The translations under genes were made by a program, and so were the position numbers. A stretch of 62,344 nucleotides of DNA from an uncultured Bacilli bacterium (GTDB lineage Bacteria > Bacillota_I > Bacilli_A > RF39 > UBA660): assembly GCA_947589495.1 (NCBI GenBank), contig CANQAK010000004.1, forward strand, positions 1 to 62,344. Reading direction: 5' to 3'. Below, in pieces: positions 26,135 through 37,465 of the stretch (its first letter is position 1; each line of letters opens with the position of its first letter). The notes under the pieces were generated by a model that worked only from the letters and a program-made list of their open reading frames with translations, made no database searches and was not told the origin of the DNA.

Positions 26135-27181
26135 CTATTTCTTTCTTTTATGGTCATATAATATATCTGTTTTTAATATAACAAATAAGATTAAAATCAT
26201 TACTAATAAATATAATACTATTGCTTCATGATTATTACCAATTACATATAAAATTGAAATAACTGCAAAGATTAAATTAATTAAATAAATAATTAAAATA
26301 CTTATTTTTGGAGAAAATTTCAATTTTAGTAATTGATGGTGAAAATGTTCTTTATCCGGAGCTCCAATATTTTCACCTTTAATAAGTCTTCTAAAAATAG
26401 CAAATAAAGTATCACATATAGGAATAGCTAAAATAGTTATTGGAATAATTAAAGATGTAAGAGTTGCTACTTTAAATCCTAAAAGAGAGATAACTGCTAT
26501 TATAAAACCTAAAAATAAACTACCTGAATCTCCCATAAAAATTTTAGCGGGAGGAAAATTAAAAACTAAAAATCCTAATGTTGAACCTAACATAATTAAA
26601 GATAATATTATATCAAGTCCTCCTAATTTATTTAAAATAAAAGCTATAATTCCTATTGTTAAAAAATAAATAGTACTAACTCCAGCAGCTAAACCATCTA
26701 AACCATCTATAATATTTATAGCATTTGATATAGCTACTATAAAAAATGTTGATAATATGTAACTTATTAACATATTAAATTTTAAATGTATTCCTAAAAA
26801 AGTAATTTCATTAAAATATATTTGACCATATAATACCACTATTAAAGCCGCAATTATTTGAACTAAAAATTTATATCGAGCTCTAATTGGTTTAACATCA
26901 TCAAAAATACCAATTAACAAGATAATAAAAGATCCTATTAGTATTGATAACATTTGAGTAGTAATTTCTCCATATAAAATATAACCTAAAAGAAATGCTC
27001 CAAATATTGCTAAACCACCTAGTCTAGGCATTGGCTTTTTATGAACTTTTCTTTCATTTGGAAAATCAATCGCTCCAACATGACGAGCAATTTTTTGACA
27101 TATTGGTACTAATAATAAGCTAGTAATAAAAGTAATAATTATTATTTCTAACACATTATGACCATTTACATTCCAATACAT
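26135..27181 (-). CDS. tagO: UDP-GlcNAc:undecaprenyl-phosphate GlcNAc-1-phosphate transferase
   Basis: MraY/WecA family. It has PNERKVHKKPMPRLGGLAIF, NAINIIDGLDGLA and FMGDSGSLFLGF. The track start is 27229. The ATG at 27181 with GGTG 7 nt upstream is more plausible. Confidence 0.8.
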   Translation of the reverse strand: MYWNVNGHNVLEIIIITFITSLLLVPICQKIARHVGAIDFPNERKVHKKPMPRLGGLAIFGAFLLGYILYGEITTQMLSILIGSFIILLIGIFDDVKPIRARYKFLVQIIAALIVVLYGQIYFNEITFLGIHLKFNMLISYILSTFFIVAISNAINIIDGLDGLAAGVSTIYFLTIGIIAFILNKLGGLDIILSLIMLGSTLGFLVFNFPPAKIFMGDSGSLFLGFIIAVISLLGFKVATLTSLIIPITILAIPICDTLFAIFRRLIKGENIGAPDKEHFHHQLLKLKFSPKISILIIYLINLIFAVISILYVIGNNHEAIVLYLLVMILILFVILKTDILYDHKRKK

Positions 27182-27255
27182 ATTTAAACACCTATTATTA
27201 TTATACCTAATAAATAATAAAAAAGCCATAAAATTACTTATGACTTATCATTTAT

Positions 27256-28674
27256 TTACTTTTTCTTCTTTTTTTTACTTTTTTTATCATCTTCAAATAA
27301 ATCATACATTTCTGTATCATCATCACTAGAAATTATTTCTTCAATGTTATCTTTCTTTTTATCTTCTAGTGGCTTTTCTTCTTCAACTTTGTTTGTTTTT
27401 TCTTTATTTTCTTTCTTTTCTTTTTTGGGCTTTTTAATATCTTGATCATTTTTCAATACTTGTACCAATTTTTTCTTATTAACACTTAAATGTATTATAC
27501 ATATTACTGATAAAAGTAACGCTACTGAAAAAGCTATAATTATATATAAATATGTTTGATTTAATTTACTTAAATTATCTAATTGAGTAGAATCATATAA
27601 ACTAAATGTCTTATTAATTGTATCATATAAGTAAAAATCTTTTTTACCAGTTTCAATATTCATTGCATAAACTATGTATGATTTTGAACTATTACCCATT
27701 TTACCTACTTTATAATTTTCTCCATCTATATCAAGAGTAGTTTTATCTATTCCTAAAATTTCTTCTTCAAAATCTAAAATAATTAATTTAATACTTGCCC
27801 CGGTTAATTCATTATATTTTTCATATTTACCATTACTATATACAAAGCTTAAAATTGTACCATCTTCTTTTTTTAACCCTACTAAAGTATAATCAATTTT
27901 AGGATTATAACAACCGGGAATTAAATTATCATTAATGGTTACATCTCTTTCAGTAAATGGTTCTTGACATAAATAATTATCTCTTATTTTAACTACTGTA
28001 TAATTTTCTCCATCTACTTGAACATTAATAGGATTTTCATCAACTACATTAACAATTAAATTATATGTTTTAGATTCACCATTCTCTGCTTTAACTACAA
28101 CTGCAATATTATTAATTCCTTCAACTACATTAACTTCTCCTGCTCCAGAAACACTTGCATAACCATCAGTAGGAGTAGCACTTATATTAACACTCTTTGT
28201 TCCTTCGGGAACATTTACAGTATAATCAAAAATATTTTTATCAAAGGAAGGAGAAATTTCATAACCTTCTACACTTAATGATTTTAATGTATTATCTTTT
28301 GATTTTTCTCTTGGTAATGAAACTGTTATTTGAATTGTTTGAGCACCAGAAACAGGACTACCATTATTATCACTAACACTAAAAGGGGTAACTGTAATAG
28401 TAGAGGTTCCCACATTTAAAGCACTCAATGTAATGCTATAAGAACCATTTTCAATCCATGCTCGATCTTCACTTACAGAAATAACAGAAGAATTAGAAGA
28501 AGTAATATTAAATCTTCCTATAACATTTCCACCATTTATAGTCAACTTTGTAGAAGAACCTTTAGTTAAATTTTTACTTCCTACTCCAATACTATAAGCA
28601 GCAGCTTCTACATTAGTTAAACCAATAAATAACATAGTAATTAATAACAATACTTTTATAAAATTCTTTTTCAT
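27256..28674 (-). CDS. surface protein with Ig-like and cadherin-like beta-sandwich domains and a C-terminal membrane anchor
   Basis: It has a signal peptide. NTLKSLSVEGYEISPSFDKNIFDYTVNVP is the cadherin-like (PF12733-type) pattern. A C-terminal TM helix is followed by a K/E-rich tail. Confidence 0.6.
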   Translation of the reverse strand: MKKNFIKVLLLITMLFIGLTNVEAAAYSIGVGSKNLTKGSSTKLTINGGNVIGRFNITSSNSSVISVSEDRAWIENGSYSITLSALNVGTSTITVTPFSVSDNNGSPVSGAQTIQITVSLPREKSKDNTLKSLSVEGYEISPSFDKNIFDYTVNVPEGTKSVNISATPTDGYASVSGAGEVNVVEGINNIAVVVKAENGESKTYNLIVNVVDENPINVQVDGENYTVVKIRDNYLCQEPFTERDVTINDNLIPGCYNPKIDYTLVGLKKEDGTILSFVYSNGKYEKYNELTGASIKLIILDFEEEILGIDKTTLDIDGENYKVGKMGNSSKSYIVYAMNIETGKKDFYLYDTINKTFSLYDSTQLDNLSKLNQTYLYIIIAFSVALLLSVICIIHLSVNKKKLVQVLKNDQDIKKPKKEKKENKEKTNKVEEEKPLEDKKKDNIEEIISSDDDTEMYDLFEDDKKSKKKKKK

Positions 28675-28678
28675 TTCA

Positions 28679-30394
28679 TTACCTTCCCATTATACTATTT
28701 TTTATTTTAACATAATCAGTAGCACCAATTGAATTATTATTATCAGCATCAGCTGCTAAACTTTGTGAAATATTTAATTCACTACCAGATTTTTCCATAA
28801 TATAATTTTTGATTTTAACATAATCGGTAGCACCTATTCCACCATCACCATCGACATCCCCTTTTACAACAATTGTATAATTAGCAGTTTCACTACCATT
28901 ACTAATTGTTATAACTTGTCCAGTTTTAATAATCGAATCATCACTAGCACCACTTACACTAACTGAATAACCATTTAATTTATTTTTAATATCAGATATT
29001 TTTGAATTTATTTCAAAGCCTATTAAACACCCTTGTTGTACTGAAACATTTATATTATTTAATGCACTATTTATACCAGCTGAATTATCAGAACTAGTTT
29101 TAACATTATCAGATCCACCACTTGCCCAAACTAATCCTTCTAAGATAGGACTTTCAGCACTACTACTTGCTCCTATATTAAAGAAATTAAATAATCCTTT
29201 ATAAGTTACCCCTTTATAAGTAAATTCTGCTCCACTAGTAGCTTTTGAACCATTATTACCTGATTCTTGTTTAGCTAAACTAGCTAAATAAACAGGACTC
29301 ATATTAGCAGTTTTTCCTGCTTCAACAAAGATATCAGCATAAGACATATTATCCAAGAAAGAATATTCTGCCATAAATGTTCCTTTTAAAACAGATTGAA
29401 CAACTGTTGATGTATAATTATCACTATAAGTCAAAGATTCAAACATTAATATTCTTTCAGCATTTAAGAAATTTCTTGGATCTAAATAATAACTTACAGT
29501 TTCTCTATTAGCAATATACCAACCATTTTCAGTTTGAATACGACTTCCACTAGATAAATCATAATATTTATCTCCACCTTGAATAGAACTTAAACTTTTT
29601 TCAGCGGTAACAGCACTATTAAAATCTAAATTAGTATGAAGTGCTTTAAAAGTCCAATTTGGATAACTATTATGAATAAGTCTTAATTTACATTTATAAC
29701 TTTCTGGAAATTGTTGAGTATTTAAAGCACTTTCAAATGCTTGATCAGATAAAGCATTTTGACATGAATTATCAATATCTTTTCCAGGTAGATAAGTATA
29801 ATCTGGCATATTATTAAATACGGGAATAGTAAACTCAAGTGGTAAACTTAATAAATTATTTTCTTTATAACTTTTATAACTTGTGTATGCTTCTGAATAT
29901 GGCGCTGCTAAATTAGCCATATATTGATGATTATATACTTTATATGATCCATTTGGATTAACATTAAATTTCTTTAAATAAGAAGTGAATTGTCCTTTAC
30001 TTATATAAGAAGATGAAATAAATTTAGCTCCTCCAACTATTGCACTTTTAGGACTTGTCCAAGGTCTATCATAAATATCTCCTGAAACATTTCCTGATTC
30101 ATCAATTAAAGATGTATAATCTCGACAAACATATCCTGTTTTAGTTCCTTCATAATATATTTGATACCATCCATTAGAACAAGAATCATTACTTTTCGTA
30201 ATATTATTATTAACTAAACTATATTCAGCATTTTTATTTAATTTTTTAATTATTGAATAATTTGTACCTGCACCACTTCGTAAATTAACATCAGTTCCCA
30301 CTATTTTTAAACGACTTTGAGCATAACAAAAATTCATACTTAGTACGAATAAAAAACAACTAAATAACATAATATTTAAATGTCTTATCTTCAT
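28679..30394 (-). CDS. secreted SH3b - N-acetylglucosaminidase - dockerin protein (putative autolysin)
   Basis: It has a signal peptide, an SH3b-like segment (VNLRSGAGTNYSIIKKL) and a glucosaminidase core (FVEAGKTANMSPVYLASLAKQESG). Two C-terminal dockerin-type repeats are present: GDVDGDGGIGATDYVKIKNYIM and ADADNNNSIGATDYVKIKNSIM. Confidence 0.7.
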   Translation of the reverse strand: MKIRHLNIMLFSCFLFVLSMNFCYAQSRLKIVGTDVNLRSGAGTNYSIIKKLNKNAEYSLVNNNITKSNDSCSNGWYQIYYEGTKTGYVCRDYTSLIDESGNVSGDIYDRPWTSPKSAIVGGAKFISSSYISKGQFTSYLKKFNVNPNGSYKVYNHQYMANLAAPYSEAYTSYKSYKENNLLSLPLEFTIPVFNNMPDYTYLPGKDIDNSCQNALSDQAFESALNTQQFPESYKCKLRLIHNSYPNWTFKALHTNLDFNSAVTAEKSLSSIQGGDKYYDLSSGSRIQTENGWYIANRETVSYYLDPRNFLNAERILMFESLTYSDNYTSTVVQSVLKGTFMAEYSFLDNMSYADIFVEAGKTANMSPVYLASLAKQESGNNGSKATSGAEFTYKGVTYKGLFNFFNIGASSSAESPILEGLVWASGGSDNVKTSSDNSAGINSALNNINVSVQQGCLIGFEINSKISDIKNKLNGYSVSVSGASDDSIIKTGQVITISNGSETANYTIVVKGDVDGDGGIGATDYVKIKNYIMEKSGSELNISQSLAADADNNNSIGATDYVKIKNSIMGR

Positions 30395-30931: not shown

Positions 30932-30962
30932 AAATACGTCAAAATGTATTTTTATTTTTTTT
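30930..30962 (+). terminator. intrinsic terminator
   Basis: Stem aaatac (30932..30937) pairs with gtattt (30946..30951), followed by a T-run. Confidence 0.5.
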
Positions 30963-31029
30963 ATATTTTAATTAAAAAGGAAGTGATGAGTAGCGTTGCC
31001 TATTCCAAATTTTTTAGAGAAATTCCATT

Positions 31030-31158
31030 TTGAAAGGAGCACAAAGTGCTTTTATTAAAGTCTTTTTAGTAATTATTTTTATTTTGCTATACATTATTAT
31101 TATATTAGTTATTAAAAACGGCCGTCTGCTTAATGTTGTTATACAACATTTAAATTAG
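31030..31158 (+). CDS. diverged third copy of small hydrophobic ORF (weak start)
   Basis: It occupies the same relative position as the 34-codon ORFs at 32835 and 34608. It encodes a 42-codon hydrophobic peptide (..FIKVFLVIIFILLYIIIILVIKNGR..) only from a TTG start. The well-placed AAGGAG+GTG at 31046 opens only a 7-codon frame. It may be decayed. Confidence 0.2.
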   Translation: MKGAQSAFIKVFLVIIFILLYIIIILVIKNGRLLNVVIQHLN

Positions 31159-31190
31159 CAATGAAACACATTTTCCAGACGGTGTAAAAC

Positions 31191-31276
31191 TCACGCTTCC
31201 TAATATTTAGGATACTCTATTTTTATATATTACAATCTTGTTTTGAATATTAAACTGAAGAAGTTTAATATTTTTT
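31191..31276. repeat. partial copy of the distal part of the ~0.5 kb inter-paralogue spacer
   Basis: cacgcttcctaatatt...tactctatttttatat(at)attacaat...tgaatattaaactgaagaagtttaatat is shared with 32978..33062 and, in its left part, with 34751..34798. Confidence 0.8.
31246..31272. other. AT-rich perfect hairpin 5 nt beyond the stop codon of paralogue 1
   Basis: aatattaaac-tgaagaa-gtttaatatt forms a 10-bp stem with a 7-nt loop. No U-run follows on the gene strand. Confidence 0.7.
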
Positions 31277-32533
31277 CTAACTTTTTATGTAGAATGGATC
31301 GGAACTTGTCCCTGCTCCCCCTAATTCTATATCAGACGTTAGATAGAAGACTGGGCGAATCGCATACGTATATTTCAAGGTGTTGTCGCTGATTCCGCCA
31401 AACTGATTCACAAACCACGCTTGGTAGAAAGGGTCCGAGCTACTCCATAGACCAATTCGCGACATGGTCCATTCATAGTCCGATGTTGTTCCCCCATTTT
31501 TTGAAATATGCATCCAGCCATTGTTTATACATTTTTGATATGTTTCTTGCCCTAAACGCATATGACAATTTGTTACGTTTGCTTGATAATAGTAATCATG
31601 TAAATATATTAATCCTATTGGTGCAGTATCACTCATTTGTTTCCATTTCTGATCTGTTATTAATTTATAATCTTTATCATAATATTGGGGTGCATCTTGT
31701 CCAGTCTCTATTCTATATGTTTGATCTGCACTTTCGATTAATGTTTCCTCATAATCATATCCTATATCTCCATACCACCATTCTTGTGGCTCTATTTTTC
31801 CTTTTATTTCTTCATTTAATGTACTTAAGAATGAATTACCATTTGTATTTAATTCTTTAAATAAGTCACTTTCTGGCCATTCGGGACAATCTCCTCCTTC
31901 ACAATAAACGTTAGTAGATGGGTCCACACTATATTTTGCATTCCATGCTTTTGTCCCTATGCTTTTTTGTTTCATCACTTTAATATTTCCTTCTGGAGTG
32001 ATTCCAATGATTCGATACATTTCATTAGATCCTGATGCACAATTTGCTTGTCCTATTTGCTTTAGGCATATATAGTTATTTACATTTGTTCCTTGATATC
32101 TATACATTCCTCCAACTAAATCTATACTCAATCCACTATCTGCTTGACTTTGTAGTGTTTGTAATGTTTGTGGTACTTTATCAAAATATAAATAACAATA
32201 TGATGTTTTATTTGTACTTACTGTTACTTTATTATTTTCCAAATCATATTCTAAACTGTTTTCTATTTTTTCTCCATTATTATCCATACATCCTGATTTT
32301 TCTTCATTTAACATATAACCTTCTCCTGGAAAACTTGATTCTTCTTTATACTGTCCATCTGTGCCTTTTACCATTATGGCAAACATACTATTTTTTTCTA
32401 CATCTACTACATCTTTTAACTTTACTTCATCTAATTGTGTTTGATATGCCGTATGTTTATGACATATTAAAAAGGTACTTACTGTTAGTATTACTCCTAT
32501 TACAAATATTACTGTAGTTTTTCTTTTCTCCAT
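31277..32533 (-). CDS. variable surface protein paralogue 1 (signal-anchored, C-terminal lectin-like domain with hypervariable segment)
   Basis: The track ORF starts at GTG 32545. The ATG at 32533 (MEKRKTT, GGTGA 8 nt upstream) matches the start of paralogue 2. Motifs shared with the other copies: GGMYRYQG, MYRIIGITPEGNIKVMKQ, CPEWPESD, WWYGD, GLIYLHDYYYQ, GWMHISKN, EWTMSR and RPVFYLTSDIELGGAG. Confidence 0.8.
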   Translation of the reverse strand: MEKRKTTVIFVIGVILTVSTFLICHKHTAYQTQLDEVKLKDVVDVEKNSMFAIMVKGTDGQYKEESSFPGEGYMLNEEKSGCMDNNGEKIENSLEYDLENNKVTVSTNKTSYCYLYFDKVPQTLQTLQSQADSGLSIDLVGGMYRYQGTNVNNYICLKQIGQANCASGSNEMYRIIGITPEGNIKVMKQKSIGTKAWNAKYSVDPSTNVYCEGGDCPEWPESDLFKELNTNGNSFLSTLNEEIKGKIEPQEWWYGDIGYDYEETLIESADQTYRIETGQDAPQYYDKDYKLITDQKWKQMSDTAPIGLIYLHDYYYQANVTNCHMRLGQETYQKCINNGWMHISKNGGTTSDYEWTMSRIGLWSSSDPFYQAWFVNQFGGISDNTLKYTYAIRPVFYLTSDIELGGAGTSSDPFYIKS

Positions 32534-32602
32534 TATATAATTCACCTTTTCTTTTTGTTAATAACTTACTATTATTTATTAACTCATCTATCCTATATGG
32601 TT

Positions 32603-32629
32603 ATTATATAATACCCCCCCCGGAGTCAA
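32603..32629 (-). promoter_or_regulatory. candidate sigma-A promoter of paralogue 1 with (G)8 in the spacer
   Basis: The minus strand reads TTGACT (32624..32629) - CC GGGGGGGG TATTA - TATAAT (32603..32608). The spacer is 15 nt. The homopolymer is at 32614..32621. Confidence 0.6.
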
Positions 32630-32834
32630 GTTTTAAAATTTATTTTGTTGTTAATTTTATGTTTTTTTTAAACATTCCATTTTTCTTGTGTCTTATTTTG
32701 ACTGGTTTTGTCGAAAGTATTTACAAATAAAAAATCCTATTATTTAATAGAGACTTATGGAAGTGTTGGTACTGACGTCACCTTTAAACTGATTTTCAGG
32801 GGGATTTATTTCTCAGGAAAGAGGTGAGACGGTT

Positions 32835-32939
32835 ATGAAAGCAAAAACTTTAAATAAGTTATTGTTATTAATAATAATAATTTTGTCCATTATTATTTTA
32901 ATAGACAAATTAAAAGACGTCGTCCTTATAGTAGGATAA
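32835..32939 (+). CDS. 34-aa hydrophobic peptide (candidate type I toxin-like small protein), copy A
   Basis: ATG with AGAGGTGA 7 nt upstream. The peptide is MKAKTLNKLLLLIIIILSIIILIDKLKDVVLIVG: a charged N-terminus, one TM helix and a charged tail. It is conserved at 34608..34712 with only hydrophobic substitutions. A candidate promoter TTGACT lies at 32698..32703. Confidence 0.5.
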   Translation: MKAKTLNKLLLLIIIILSIIILIDKLKDVVLIVG

Positions 32940-32987
32940 CGTCTATCTAAATATATAATTTAGGTGACGTGAAATATCACGCTTCCT
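32907..32987 (-). ncRNA. candidate antisense RNA overlapping the 3' end of small ORF A
   Basis: The minus strand carries a TTGTAA (33017..33022) - 17 nt - TATACT (32994..32999) promoter. Downstream are hairpin gcgtga-tat-ttcacgt, then hairpin 32915..32944 (agacgttatcc/ggacgacgtct) followed by UUUUAAUUU. It could alternatively be the 3' UTR and terminator of paralogue 2. Confidence 0.35.
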
Positions 32988-33033
32988 AATATTAGTATAC
33001 TCTATTTTTATATATATTACAATTCTTTTTTGA

Positions 33034-33058
33034 ATATTAAACTGAAGAAGTTTAATAT
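33034..33058. other. AT-rich perfect hairpin 5 nt beyond the stop codon of paralogue 2
   Basis: atattaaac-tgaagaa-gtttaatat forms a 9-bp stem with a 7-nt loop. It is the same element as 31246..31272. Confidence 0.7.
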
Positions 33059-33062
33059 CTTT

Positions 33063-34319
33063 CTAACTTGCTATGTAGAATGGTTCAGTTGTTGATCCTG
33101 CTCCTCCTAATTCTATATCGGATGTTAAATAGAATACTGGACGAACCGAATATTCATTTTTCAAGCTGTCCTTGCCGACACTGCCACTCGAAGTCACACG
33201 CCACGCATAGAAGTAAATACTTGAGCTTTCAGCTCGACCTATACGGGACATGGTCCATTCAGCTTGCTCGTTATCCGTAAATGAATTATCATTTTTTGAT
33301 ATGTGCATCCAACCGTTATCTTTACATTGTGTATGTGTATTGTTATCATAATGACAGATATTTGATGTTGATTGATAATAATAATCATGTAAATATATTA
33401 ATCCTATTTTTGCTTTGCTATTCATTTTTGCCCATTTTCCTGTTTCTATTGCTCCTTGTTTTAGTTTTGGATAATATTGACTGTCTACTTGACCTGTTTC
33501 TATTTGATATATTTCATCTGCTGTTTTATTTGCATAATCATAGTTTATATCACCATACCACCAATCCCAATCTTCTATTTTATTTTTTATATCACTAGAT
33601 AAATTACTTAAGAATGAATCACTATCTGCGTTTAATGTTTTATATATTTCACTATCTGGCCATTCTGGACAGCCACCATCATCACATTTGTATTTCTCTG
33701 TGGACGTTTTTTCATCATATTTTGTATTCCATACGAATGTATTTGTTCCATTATTTGTATATTTTGTTTGTTTCATTACTTTTATATTTCCTTCAGGAGT
33801 GATTCCTATGATTCGATACATTTCATCTGTTTTTTCTTTACAATTTGTATTATTTAAACTTCCTAAACAAATGTAATTATTTACATCTGCACCTTGGTAT
33901 CTATACATTCCTCCAACAGGATTTGTACTTAAACCACTGCCTTCTTTTCTTATATCGTCTACTGACAATTGTTTATCAAAATACAAATAACAATATGATG
34001 TTTGCCCTGTACTTACTATTACTTGTTGACTATCTTCATCATATGATAAACTATTTGGTATTAACTCGTTATTATTATCCATACACCCTGATTTATCTTT
34101 ATTTAGTTTGTAACCTTTTTCTGGAAAACTATCACTTGGTGCATATTCTCCATTTTCTTTTACCATTATTGCAAACATATTATTATCTTTTATATCTTTT
34201 AATTTTACTTCATCTAATTGTGTTGTTTGATATGCCGTATGTTTATGACATATTAAAAAGGTACTTACTATTAACATTACTCCTATTACAAATATTATTG
34301 TTGTTTTTCTTTTCTCCAT
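33063..34319 (-). CDS. variable surface protein paralogue 2
   Basis: 418 aa. It has the same architecture and motif islands as paralogue 1. The first ~40 aa are near-identical. Confidence 0.8.
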   Translation of the reverse strand: MEKRKTTIIFVIGVMLIVSTFLICHKHTAYQTTQLDEVKLKDIKDNNMFAIMVKENGEYAPSDSFPEKGYKLNKDKSGCMDNNNELIPNSLSYDEDSQQVIVSTGQTSYCYLYFDKQLSVDDIRKEGSGLSTNPVGGMYRYQGADVNNYICLGSLNNTNCKEKTDEMYRIIGITPEGNIKVMKQTKYTNNGTNTFVWNTKYDEKTSTEKYKCDDGGCPEWPDSEIYKTLNADSDSFLSNLSSDIKNKIEDWDWWYGDINYDYANKTADEIYQIETGQVDSQYYPKLKQGAIETGKWAKMNSKAKIGLIYLHDYYYQSTSNICHYDNNTHTQCKDNGWMHISKNDNSFTDNEQAEWTMSRIGRAESSSIYFYAWRVTSSGSVGKDSLKNEYSVRPVFYLTSDIELGGAGSTTEPFYIAS

Positions 34320-34391
34320 ATTATATAATTCACCTTTTCTTTTTTGTTAATAACTTACTATTATTTATTAACATCTCTATCTTATAAGGTT

Positions 34392-34419
34392 ATTATATAA
34401 TACCCCCCCCCGGAGTCAA
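34392..34419 (-). promoter_or_regulatory. candidate sigma-A promoter of paralogue 2 with (G)9 in the spacer
   Basis: The minus strand reads TTGACT (34414..34419) - CC GGGGGGGGG TATTA - TATAAT (34392..34397). The spacer is 16 nt. The homopolymer is at 34403..34411. Confidence 0.6.
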
Positions 34420-34607
34420 GTTTCAATTTTTATTTTGTTGTTAACTTTATGTTTTTCTTGTGTCTTATTTTGACTGGTTTTGTCGAAAGTATTTACAAAT
34501 AAAAAATTCTATTATTTAATAGAAACTTATGGAAGTGTTGGTACTGACGTCACCTTTAAACTGATTTTCAGGGGGATTTGGTTCTTCAGAAAAGAGGTGA
34601 GACGGTT

Positions 34608-34712
34608 ATGAAAGCAAAAACTTTAAATAAGTTCTTGTTATTAATTATATTAATTTTGTTACTATTTATTTTAGTAGACAAATTAAAAGACGTCGTCCTT
34701 ATAGTAGGATAA
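34608..34712 (+). CDS. 34-aa hydrophobic peptide (candidate type I toxin-like small protein), copy B
   Basis: The peptide is MKAKTLNKFLLLIILILLLFILVDKLKDVVLIVG. It has the same RBS (AGAGGTGA) and the same N- and C-terminal residues as copy A. A candidate promoter TTGACT lies at 34470..34475. Confidence 0.5.
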   Translation: MKAKTLNKFLLLIILILLLFILVDKLKDVVLIVG

Positions 34713-34760
34713 CGTCTATCTAAATAAATAATTTAGGTGGCGTGAAATATCACGCTTCCT
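34680..34760 (-). ncRNA. candidate antisense RNA overlapping the 3' end of small ORF B
   Basis: The minus strand carries TTGTAA (34790..34795) - 17 nt - TATACT (34767..34772). Terminator-like hairpin 34688..34717 is followed by a U-rich run. No large gene lies upstream on this strand, so here a read-through 3' UTR cannot explain it. Confidence 0.4.
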
Positions 34761-34828
34761 AATATTAGTATACTCTATTTTTATATATATTACAATATCT
34801 TGTTTTAGCATTTACATTTCAAAATTAT

Positions 34829-34861
34829 AAAAAAAATAATTTTACTTTGCTAGTAAAATTA
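34829..34861 (-). terminator. intrinsic terminator of the lipoprotein gene
   Basis: A 10-bp stem, taattttact (34837..34846) with agtaaaatta (34852..34861), is followed by a U8 run on the minus strand. Confidence 0.75.
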
Positions 34862-34863
34862 CT

Positions 34864-37152: not shown

Positions 37153-37175
37153 AACTTTATGTTCTATTTTTTTTT
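37151..37175 (+). terminator. intrinsic terminator of uppP
   Basis: Hairpin agaac-tttat-gttct is followed by a T-run. Confidence 0.6.
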
Positions 37176-37185
37176 AATAAAAAAA

Positions 37186-37244
37186 GGGAGTTAGTTAGAC
37201 TCCCAGGGTTAAGTTAAGTCTATTTTAACGTCTTCGTTGACGAG
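37186..37244. repeat. structured ~60-nt 3' element, copy 1 (orphan)
   Basis: gggagTtagttagActccc agggttaagttaagtctattttaacgtcttcgttgacgag. Relative to copies 2 and 3, the first hairpin keeps its stem while the loop differs. Confidence 0.8.
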
Positions 37245-37378
37245 TAAATAAAAATTCATTTACTTATAGTATTTTATAATATTTATTATTATTTGTAAAT
37301 CCTAAATTTTTATACACTTATATTGTATCAATTTTATTGAATAATGTAAAATACTTTTAATAATATTTCATAAAAAAA

Positions 37379-37438
37379 GGGAGGTCGTTACTTCTCCCAG
37401 GGTTAAGTTAAATCTATTTTAACGTCTTCGTTGACGAG
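37379..37438. repeat. structured ~60-nt 3' element, copy 2 (directly downstream of paralogue 3)
   Basis: gggaggtcgttacttctccc agggttaagttaaatctattttaacgtcttcgttgacgag. On the minus strand, GGGAG..CTCCC followed by a U-run acts as a terminator for 37466..39598. Confidence 0.8.
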
Positions 37439-37465
37439 TTTTTTTTATTTTACTTATTTAGTATT

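Follow-up and report, generated by a model that had tools for sequence, protein, structure and literature searches.

Does the spacer between two duplicated genes of an uncultured bacterium harbour a small toxin gene together with the antisense RNA that would silence it? The question is raised by contig CANQAK010000004.1 of an uncultured Bacilli bacterium (assembly GCA_947589495.1), the 62,344 nucleotides of which were analysed over their full length and are termed the window in the following. Two of its intergenic regions, spacers A and B, contain a module (about 345 bp in spacer A) in which a small open reading frame (ORF) for a hydrophobic peptide is faced by a convergent antisense gene, and which a preliminary description had put forward as a candidate toxin-antitoxin (TA) unit of type I. 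The module is here considered likely to form an autonomous, type I TA-like unit in both spacers, and comparison of its sequence across genomes indicates that it most likely represents a previously undescribed RNA-controlled TA family. All elements named in that description were located at the coordinates given for them, and those of its predictions that can be judged from sequence are borne out, the plus-strand promoter being the one assignment in need of correction. Viewed alone, the signals in the window are weak: 47 promoter-like hexamers are found versus 35 expected, and the chance of a 34-codon open frame in such AT-rich DNA amounts to about 4% by a rough estimate. Chance is ruled out as their source by comparison of about 45 copies of the module from the genomes of related uncultured gut Bacilli, which are both conserved and covarying.

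Architecture of the module in spacer A

Spacer A lies between two paralogous genes on the minus strand (31277-32545, 422 aa; 33063-34319, 418 aa). The promoter assigned to the toxin mRNA (32720-32748, plus strand) consists of TTTACA (-35; 32720-32725) and TTTAAT (-10; 32743-32748) separated by 17 nt; both hexamers are kept, equally spaced and equally far from the sequence GGAAG, upstream of 26 full-length copies. The -10 element ends about 10 nt before GGAAG at 32759, near which the transcript start is placed from the sequence, yielding a predicted leader of about 76 nt. The plus-strand promoter had previously been sought at TTGACT (32698-32703); this hexamer is present, but it lacks a usable -10 element and is not conserved in the family, and the leader of about 100 nt assumed with it is correspondingly shortened.

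The predicted transcript opens with GGAAGUGUUGGUACUGACGUCACCU (32759-32783, plus strand), the 5' arm of a long-distance helix, hereafter the clamp, that is recognized by covariation and by RNAalifold; this arm contains the CACCU resembling an anti-Shine-Dalgarno (anti-SD) sequence and, at 32775-32783, the element ACGTCACCT. The Shine-Dalgarno (SD) sequence AGAGGTGA (32820-32827, plus strand), with its essentially conserved GGTG core, is located 7 nt 5' of the ATG of the small ORF (32835-32939, plus strand), which codes for the putative toxin MKAKTLNKLLLLIIIILSIIILIDKLKDVVLIVG, a peptide of 34 aa with a Lys-rich N-terminus, one transmembrane (TM) helix and a short C-terminus of mixed charge, in agreement with the preliminary description. 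Hairpin H3 (GACGTCGTCC...GGATAACGTC; 32916-32943, or 32915-32944 counting the closing A-T pair) is encoded on both strands, covers the last 8 codons of the ORF including the stop codon and, on the minus strand, constitutes a terminator stem followed by UUUUAAUUU, as had been noted before. It precedes the 3' arm of the clamp, AGGUGACGUGAAAUAUCACGCUUCC (32962-32986, plus strand), which is SD-like, includes AGGTGACGT (32962-32970) and has its complement in the antisense RNA's 5' stem-loop. An AT-rich hairpin with a CTTTCT tail (33034-33064, plus strand; stem 33034-33043/33048-33057), located just past the stop codon of the convergent 418-aa gene, is the probable terminator of the toxin mRNA, an assignment made by inference that would probably give this mRNA a total length of about 305 nt.

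On the minus strand, the promoter (32994-33022) comprises TTGTAA (-35; 33022-33017), a 17-nt spacer and TATACT (-10; 32999-32994), just as originally described, and would drive an antisense small RNA (sRNA) of about 80 nt (32909-32988, minus strand). This putative antitoxin is composed of a 5' stem-loop (SL1), an AU-rich linker, the terminator SL2 (which equals H3) and a U-tract.

Just 5' of the toxin -35 element a TTTGTCGAA motif is conserved in most copies (32706-32716 and 34478-34488 in the window); it could represent an UP element or the operator of a regulator.

Occurrence of the module family

An exact-pattern scan with the sRNA core TAGGAAGYGTG-N0-2-ATTTCACGYCRCCT across 185,579 species genomes retrieved 32 matches at 28 loci, compared with an estimated chance expectation of about 0.03 matches. 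Every one of them belongs to a single lineage of uncultured "Bacilli bacterium" gut metagenome-assembled genomes (MAGs), which derive from rabbit, goat and one further sample (T1900044547) and contain as many as nine or more copies per genome. A looser 20-mer pattern added 6 loci with 7 copies as well as 3 matches in other phyla; the latter (L110, L112 and L113; Bacteroidales, Burkholderiales) lie within coding sequence and were rejected as chance matches. A covariance model (R1) built on 36 antisense sequences recovered copy A with 69.6 bits (E = 7e-16), copy B with 70.3 bits (E = 5e-16) and a third, diverged copy C with 24.4 bits (E = 6e-4), and found no further copies in the window; its plus-strand matches at 32961-33030 and 34734-34809 were dismissed as the near-palindromic SL1 read from the opposite strand. 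R1 additionally detected two more diverged copies among independently fetched loci (L029, L044) and another one in L114. An exact 32-nt pattern derived from the three window copies had no match in the scanned genome contigs, and the window's own species is apparently absent from the scanned collection.

The independently fetched loci, 80 in number, were obtained via the protein family of the paralogous genes. While a search with the single 418-aa protein retrieved no relatives, an alignment query succeeded: the family is very large, occurs in animal-gut MAGs of uncultured "Bacilli bacterium" and yielded no Pfam domain. Only L048 and part of L019 match the module region, and these two already displayed compensatory changes and exposed the highly conserved core on the antisense strand; L001 has the promoter of the paralogous gene in common with the window, but not the module. 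A tblastn search of the 80 loci with the peptides was swamped by low-complexity noise.

The boundaries of the module are apparent from genomes with many copies, where homology begins just 5' of the plus-strand -35 element and stops at an intrinsic terminator about 85 nt past the clamp, equivalent to the window hairpin at 33034-33057. Housekeeping genes, too, have modules between them: efp and the RNase J gene enclose a tandem array of three, and dus, a miaB-like gene and rpiB have others nearby. Both orientations relative to the paralogous genes occur. The module is therefore not a leader of the paralogous genes.

The two halves of the module differ in their persistence. In about 10 copies the sRNA gene is intact although the leader or the ORF of the toxin has been lost (L019, L088, L102, L100, L104:1935, L117, L111, L029, L044 and window copy C), whereas each of the 33 matches that cover nearly the full length of the toxin 5' half (leader start to just before H3) adjoins an sRNA gene. 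Such an asymmetry, with orphan antisense genes kept and the toxin half lost, is as would be predicted for a toxin-antitoxin pair.

Conservation of the small ORF

Conservation of the ORF, the lack of which the preliminary description had named as a reason to abandon its proposal, is seen across the family. The ORF is intact at 32-36 codons in 29 of 30 aligned full-length copies, the exception being L099 with an early stop. In 29 of 30 it is accompanied by an SD sequence with GGTG, of which GTG is invariant in 26 and GT in 30 aligned copies, and by an ATG or GTG start that occupies a single alignment column. The consensus reads MKxKTLNKFLLVIILLLL..I..KDAV...., indels comprise whole codons (multiples of three), and variability is lowest at the second codon position (entropy 0.52 versus 0.78 and 0.81), as would be expected were hydrophobicity the selected trait. 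With 34 aa, one TM helix and its own SD and start codon, the peptide falls among the small (<60 aa) TM peptides that are a criterion of type I TA systems; searches of Pfam and NCBIfam with it gave no relevant match at E<=10.

The ORF, the antisense gene and the RNA structures would all fit equally well with an ordinary, non-toxic small membrane protein that is tuned by a cis-antisense RNA, i.e., a regulatory pair rather than a TA system, and the peptide matches no known toxin family. This explanation is regarded as unlikely, though as the strongest of the three alternatives: the module is multi-copy, occurs in tandem as well as dispersed, and its ORF half has often decayed, all of which are traits typical of type I TA systems (PMC8594479) and not of small housekeeping proteins. 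Retention of orphan antisense genes and an elaborate clamp with the potential to occlude the SD are further traits of this kind.

A small hairpin within the first 11 codons (32840-32844/32862-32866; alignment columns 88-92/110-114) is likewise predicted by RNAalifold and displays a C-G/U-A swap (16/9); it may contribute to occlusion of the start region or be due to coincidental codon changes.

Covariation of the mRNA clamp and hairpin H3

Unguided RNAalifold analysis of 26 mRNA-strand sequences returned the clamp (32759-32783/32962-32986) and H3 (32916-32943). When pairs were counted on this named structure (two clamp helices plus H3), 92.0% of the cells were paired with 26 sequences and 92.4% with 30; sliding the partners by 1-3 columns as a control left 28-46% paired. 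Covariance analysis of homologous copies, proposed along with the original claim, yielded 75 double-change (compensatory) cells among the 30 copies versus 28.8±6.8 in shuffles, with 0 of 500 shuffles reaching 75. The main clamp swaps are U-A/C-G (17/11) and G-C/A-U (15/12), and H3 has double compensatory changes in 7 of its 10 pairs, with 94% of cells paired. The leader columns lie outside the search pattern, so that the way in which the copies were discovered has no bearing on the covariation between leader and 3' arm. Pairing of ACGTCACCT with AGGTGACGT, formerly proposed from complementarity, is thus proven by compensatory changes.

The strand on which the clamp acts follows from its imperfections: the clamp core contains 26 G·U cells versus 3 C·A cells, so that selection for the clamp acts on plus-strand RNA rather than on the antisense RNA or on an inverted repeat in the DNA. 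In the window, the mRNA with corrected 5' end folds with -69.7 kcal/mol (z = -6.94), GGAAGUG...ACGUCACC being paired to GGUGACG...CGCUUCC such that the minimum free energy structure closes the whole mRNA, and the clamp has a mean probability of 0.96 in ViennaRNA ensembles.

These features bear on a second explanation, according to which the module is a non-coding repeat, similar to miniature inverted-repeat transposable elements (MITEs) or repetitive extragenic palindromic (REP) elements, with an incidental ORF and with clamp arms that are mere inverted repeats. The arms are indeed inverted repeats about 200 bp apart, and the copies are multiple, intergenic and found in both orientations relative to their neighbours. 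Such an origin is nevertheless very improbable, as conservation reaches promoters and terminator beyond the repeats, which are hence not terminal, the asymmetry of arm mismatches is that expected of RNA pairing, and reading frame, SD and start codon are kept with indels of whole codons.

Antisense RNA gene

The antisense gene is kept in every copy. In 34 of 34 copies TATACT or TATAAT (one TACAAT) is located 4-10 nt upstream of TAGGAAG, with TTGnnn usually 17 nt further upstream as -35 element, and every one of the 34-36 copies, orphans included, possesses the -10 and -35 elements, SL1, the terminator and the T-run, which bears out the convergent antisense gene claimed for spacer A. The T-run follows the H3 stem on the minus strand only. 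The copy A sRNA folds with -28.1 kcal/mol (z = -5.35) into a 5' stem-loop plus terminator, in accordance with the consensus structure of 36 copies. Along its whole length (32988 to 32909) the sRNA is complementary to the mRNA, matching the 3' clamp arm and the linker as well as H3 and the terminal 31 nt of the ORF. A further criterion of type I TA systems is an antisense gene with a product that pairs with the toxin mRNA; at the level of sequence and covariation, the module has one. Rfam yielded no match at gathering score across the window and no antitoxin family at E<=10 within 32500-33100; the matches KRAS_3UTR, SNORD2 and rliI in this region are at chance level (E = 2-7) and were discarded.

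Least probable of all is that the minus-strand part forms a long 5' leader or riboregulator of the 422-aa gene, or that the 9-bp inverted repeats flank an invertible promoter: the minus-strand promoter is directed at this gene, the spacer is better conserved than the flanking genes (90-92% versus about 75% nucleotide identity) and module orientation relative to the paralogous genes varies among genomes, but a stop of minus-strand transcription about 80 nt from its start is predicted from the covarying terminator hairpin and U-tract, a separate conserved promoter (~32640-32605) serves the 422-aa gene, most modules are not adjacent to any paralogous gene, and the G·U asymmetry speaks against DNA recombination sites.

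Copies B and C in the window

The unit of gene and spacer is tandemly duplicated, with spacer B at 34320-34863 and the third, diverged copy within 30932-31276; the modules themselves extend across 32720-33064 (A), 34492-34795 (B) and 30979-31235 (C). Copy B repeats the architecture of copy A, with a toxin-mRNA promoter at 34492-34520 (plus strand; TTTACA 34492-34497, 17-nt spacer, TTTAAT 34515-34520), an mRNA core at 34531-34759 (plus strand; 5' arm 34531-34555, SD 34593-34600, H3 34689-34716, 3' arm 34735-34759), the ORF MKAKTLNKFLLLIILILLLFILVDKLKDVVLIVG at 34608-34712 (plus strand), the sRNA at 34682-34761 (minus strand) and its promoter at 34767-34795 (minus strand; TTGTAA-17-TATACT). The base change in the 3' arm of copy B (AGGUGGCGU, plus strand) yields a U·G pair, and the previously noted retention of pairing by AGGTGGCGT is thus borne out.

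Copy C (plus strand, leader GGAAG at 30979) was recognized by alignment, by its sequence and by its R1 match. Its ORF (31030-31158) codes for 42 aa, begins with TTG and lacks an SD, its version of hairpin H3 is remodelled, and the sRNA-like region (31111-31202, minus strand) is preceded by a weakened -10 element (TATCCT) and by the -35 element TTGTAA at 31235-31230. Copy C is probably a module in decay.

The two spacers (32546-33062 versus 34320-34863) are 90-92% identical, while the flanking genes share about 75% nucleotide and 57-60% protein identity. This difference suggests purifying selection or gene conversion acting on the module while the paralogs diversify.

Proposed mechanism of control

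For the proposed TA unit, transcription from the plus-strand promoter (32720-32748) would generate an mRNA of about 300 nt, the 5' end of which pairs with the segment 3' of the ORF and closes the RNA, and which would be translated into the single-pass membrane peptide of 34 aa, the presumed toxin. From the convergent promoter (33022-32994) the antisense RNA of about 80 nt, the presumed antitoxin, would be transcribed. Its binding would form a duplex of about 80 bp, a likely substrate of RNase III that would mark the mRNA for decay, and would at the same time displace the mRNA 5' arm from the clamp. Once freed, ACGUCACCU could bind the SD (AGGUGA), by which repression of translation would be tightened, in analogy to SR4 acting on bsrG mRNA. 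Production of both RNAs, toxicity of the peptide, its neutralisation by the sRNA and the displacement/anti-SD switch are at present inferred only.

Folding in silico is consistent with the last step. When the sRNA-covered region was blocked in ViennaRNA, SD pairing rose from 0.76 to 0.89, and pairing between SD and leader from 0.01 to a mean of 0.48, with 0.86 and 0.94 in the window copies. Sequestration of the SD by the leader, as originally suggested, is possible in every copy; it is thermodynamically predicted in about half of them and shows no covariation.

A more far-reaching version, in which a new family limited to uncultured gut Bacilli combines a three-way switch with a role in policing or maintaining variable cassettes, can be advanced only tentatively and is rather doubtful. 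The anti-SD at the mRNA 5' end would normally be engaged with an SD-like decoy close to the 3' end (the clamp); the antitoxin, the 5' end of which copies the mRNA 5' end, would evict it by strand displacement, whereupon the real SD would be shut. The cassette role is hinted at by modules that lie beside the poly-G promoters of expanded putative surface proteins (see below).

Several observations weigh against the interpretation as a TA unit or against parts of its mechanism. The pooled pN/pS ratio (nonsynonymous to synonymous polymorphism) of the ORF, 0.68, points to weak selection only on amino-acid identity; its last 8 codons are also constrained by H3, so that ORF conservation could be partly RNA-driven; and one antisense frame is likewise open in 25 of 26 copies. 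The latter was rejected as a gene, having no conserved SD or start codon; it is a by-product of the NTN bias of the sense codons, open because its stops would require Tyr, His or Gln sense codons. Folding predicts a working switch for only about half of the copies, the clamped state already has the SD about 76% paired, and the SD/anti-SD pairing is beyond the reach of covariation because the bases concerned are near-invariant (CRCC versus GGUG). Some sRNA terminators have an interrupted U-tract (CUCUUUC). As most loci were found by a pattern based on the sRNA, sampling for toxin-only copies is weak and their absence correspondingly uncertain, and one toxin-only remnant without an SD exists (L115, 2798-2862).

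The remnant region in L115 (2798-2900; MKAITLNKFLLIIILLLLILMIIKDAVQ...) possesses no leader, SD, H3 3' arm or antisense gene and runs into a longer frame.

Relation to known type I systems

Bacillus type I toxins are characterized by a charged C-terminal tail, whereas the peptide of the module is Lys-rich at its N-terminus. In its layout, the module resembles bsrG/SR4, txpA/RatA, bsrE/SR5 and yonT/SR6 of Bacillus subtilis, all of which consist of convergent RNAs overlapping at their 3' ends and a small hydrophobic peptide. The likeness to txpA/RatA and bsrG/SR4 claimed at the outset thus holds for the arrangement, but not for sequence: no homology to the TxpA/RatA and BsrG/SR4 families was detected in Pfam, NCBIfam and Rfam, the coverage of these toxins and RNAs by the libraries being unconfirmed. 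In contrast to the B. subtilis systems, a covarying 5'-3' clamp closes the mRNA of the module, the 5' end of the sRNA copies that of the mRNA, and the overlap measures about 80 nt as compared to 100-140 bp (PMC6562991). As shown experimentally, binding of SR4 far from the bsrG SD leads to RNase III-dependent decay and extends the SD-sequestering helix from 4 to 8 bp (PMC3834814, PMC6562991); by analogy and according to the folding model, the switch of the module may follow the same logic.

Folds of type I toxin mRNAs restrain translation via SD/anti-SD or 5'-3' long-distance pairing (PMC8594479). An mRNA locked between its 5' and 3' ends and multi-copy chromosomal loci are shared by the module with hok/Sok of Escherichia coli plasmid R1 and aapA/IsoA of Helicobacter pylori (PMC6733600). 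In hok and aapA, the 3' partner is an anti-SD, the clamped mRNA stays inert until 3' trimming, and the antisense RNA acts on the 5' region (PMC6733600, PMC8594479). The module differs in having an SD-like 3' arm (AGGUGA), the anti-SD-like sequence in the 5' arm and the antisense RNA over the 3' arm, which sets it apart from this group; Pfam revealed no match to the Hok/Gef family.

In fst/RNA II (par of pAD1; Fst/Ldr superfamily of Firmicutes), convergent transcripts are combined with a small membrane toxin and with a toxin mRNA that is structured in its 5' region, and the module, with its putative toxin, is alike in these three respects. The two RNAs of par have one bidirectional terminator in common, and direct repeats provide pairing at the translation start, whereas the sRNA terminator of the module is located inside the 3' end of the ORF and the mRNA ends about 70 nt further on. 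No Fst-family match was obtained in Pfam. The module probably works like a type I TA system and constitutes a new family or variant in that class, but a member of no named family.

Type I TA families have been defined singly, and nearly all known ones stem from cultured Proteobacteria and Firmicutes. If the interpretation is true, the present family would be one found only in an uncultured low-GC lineage of gut Bacilli. Its support by covariation is unusually strong, the approximately 45 natural variants representing a mutational map of clamp, terminator and antisense RNA. Decoy, anti-SD and SD would be arranged unlike hok/aapA and would extend the idea, known from bsrG/SR4, of an antitoxin acting remotely on the ribosome-binding site. 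The covariance model and the peptide alignment permit annotation of genes in these MAGs that are missed by gene callers, Pfam, NCBIfam and Rfam, and the compact module could serve as an orthogonal device for RNA regulation.

Genomic neighbourhood

The promoters of the 422-aa and 418-aa paralogs (~32640-32605 and ~34420-34390, minus strand) contain a poly-G tract between -35 TTGACT and -10 TATAAT, G8 in spacer A and G9 in spacer B. The same design recurs in 50 distinct promoters of related MAGs among loci L001-L117, with 40 instances of G8, 7 of G9, 2 of G7 and 1 of G6. From their sequence, these tracts suggest phase variation by slipped-strand mispairing in a protein family that is hugely expanded and the members of which have an N-terminal TM segment and no Pfam domain and are possibly surface proteins. 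A poly-G promoter directly follows or adjoins the module in about half of the copies (L081, L083, L087, L095, L098 and L109 in goat MAG RGIG2961; furthermore L048, L084, L094, L104, L115 and L116), which suggests that the module and the genes with poly-G promoters were duplicated together as cassettes.

A reverse-transcriptase ORF of 377 aa (Pfam RVT_1) and an ORF of 96 aa directly adjoin the toxin-less orphan antisense copy at L019 (2878-4291; identical to locus L085), and this region could represent an element related to retrons or diversity-generating retroelements (DGRs). On the minus strand of the window, a protein with SH3_3 and dockerin domains (28679-30394) and a cadherin-like domain protein (27256-28674) are encoded, the latter gene adjoined by one for a glycosyltransferase of family 4 (26135-27229); the neighbourhood 27256-30394 looks like a cell-surface locus. 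The sequence CTCGTCAACGAAGACG together with a G+C-rich, terminator-like hairpin occurs 3' of a 710-aa paralog (37172-37266 and 37366-37460) and again in L048 (7293-7360), likewise after a paralog.

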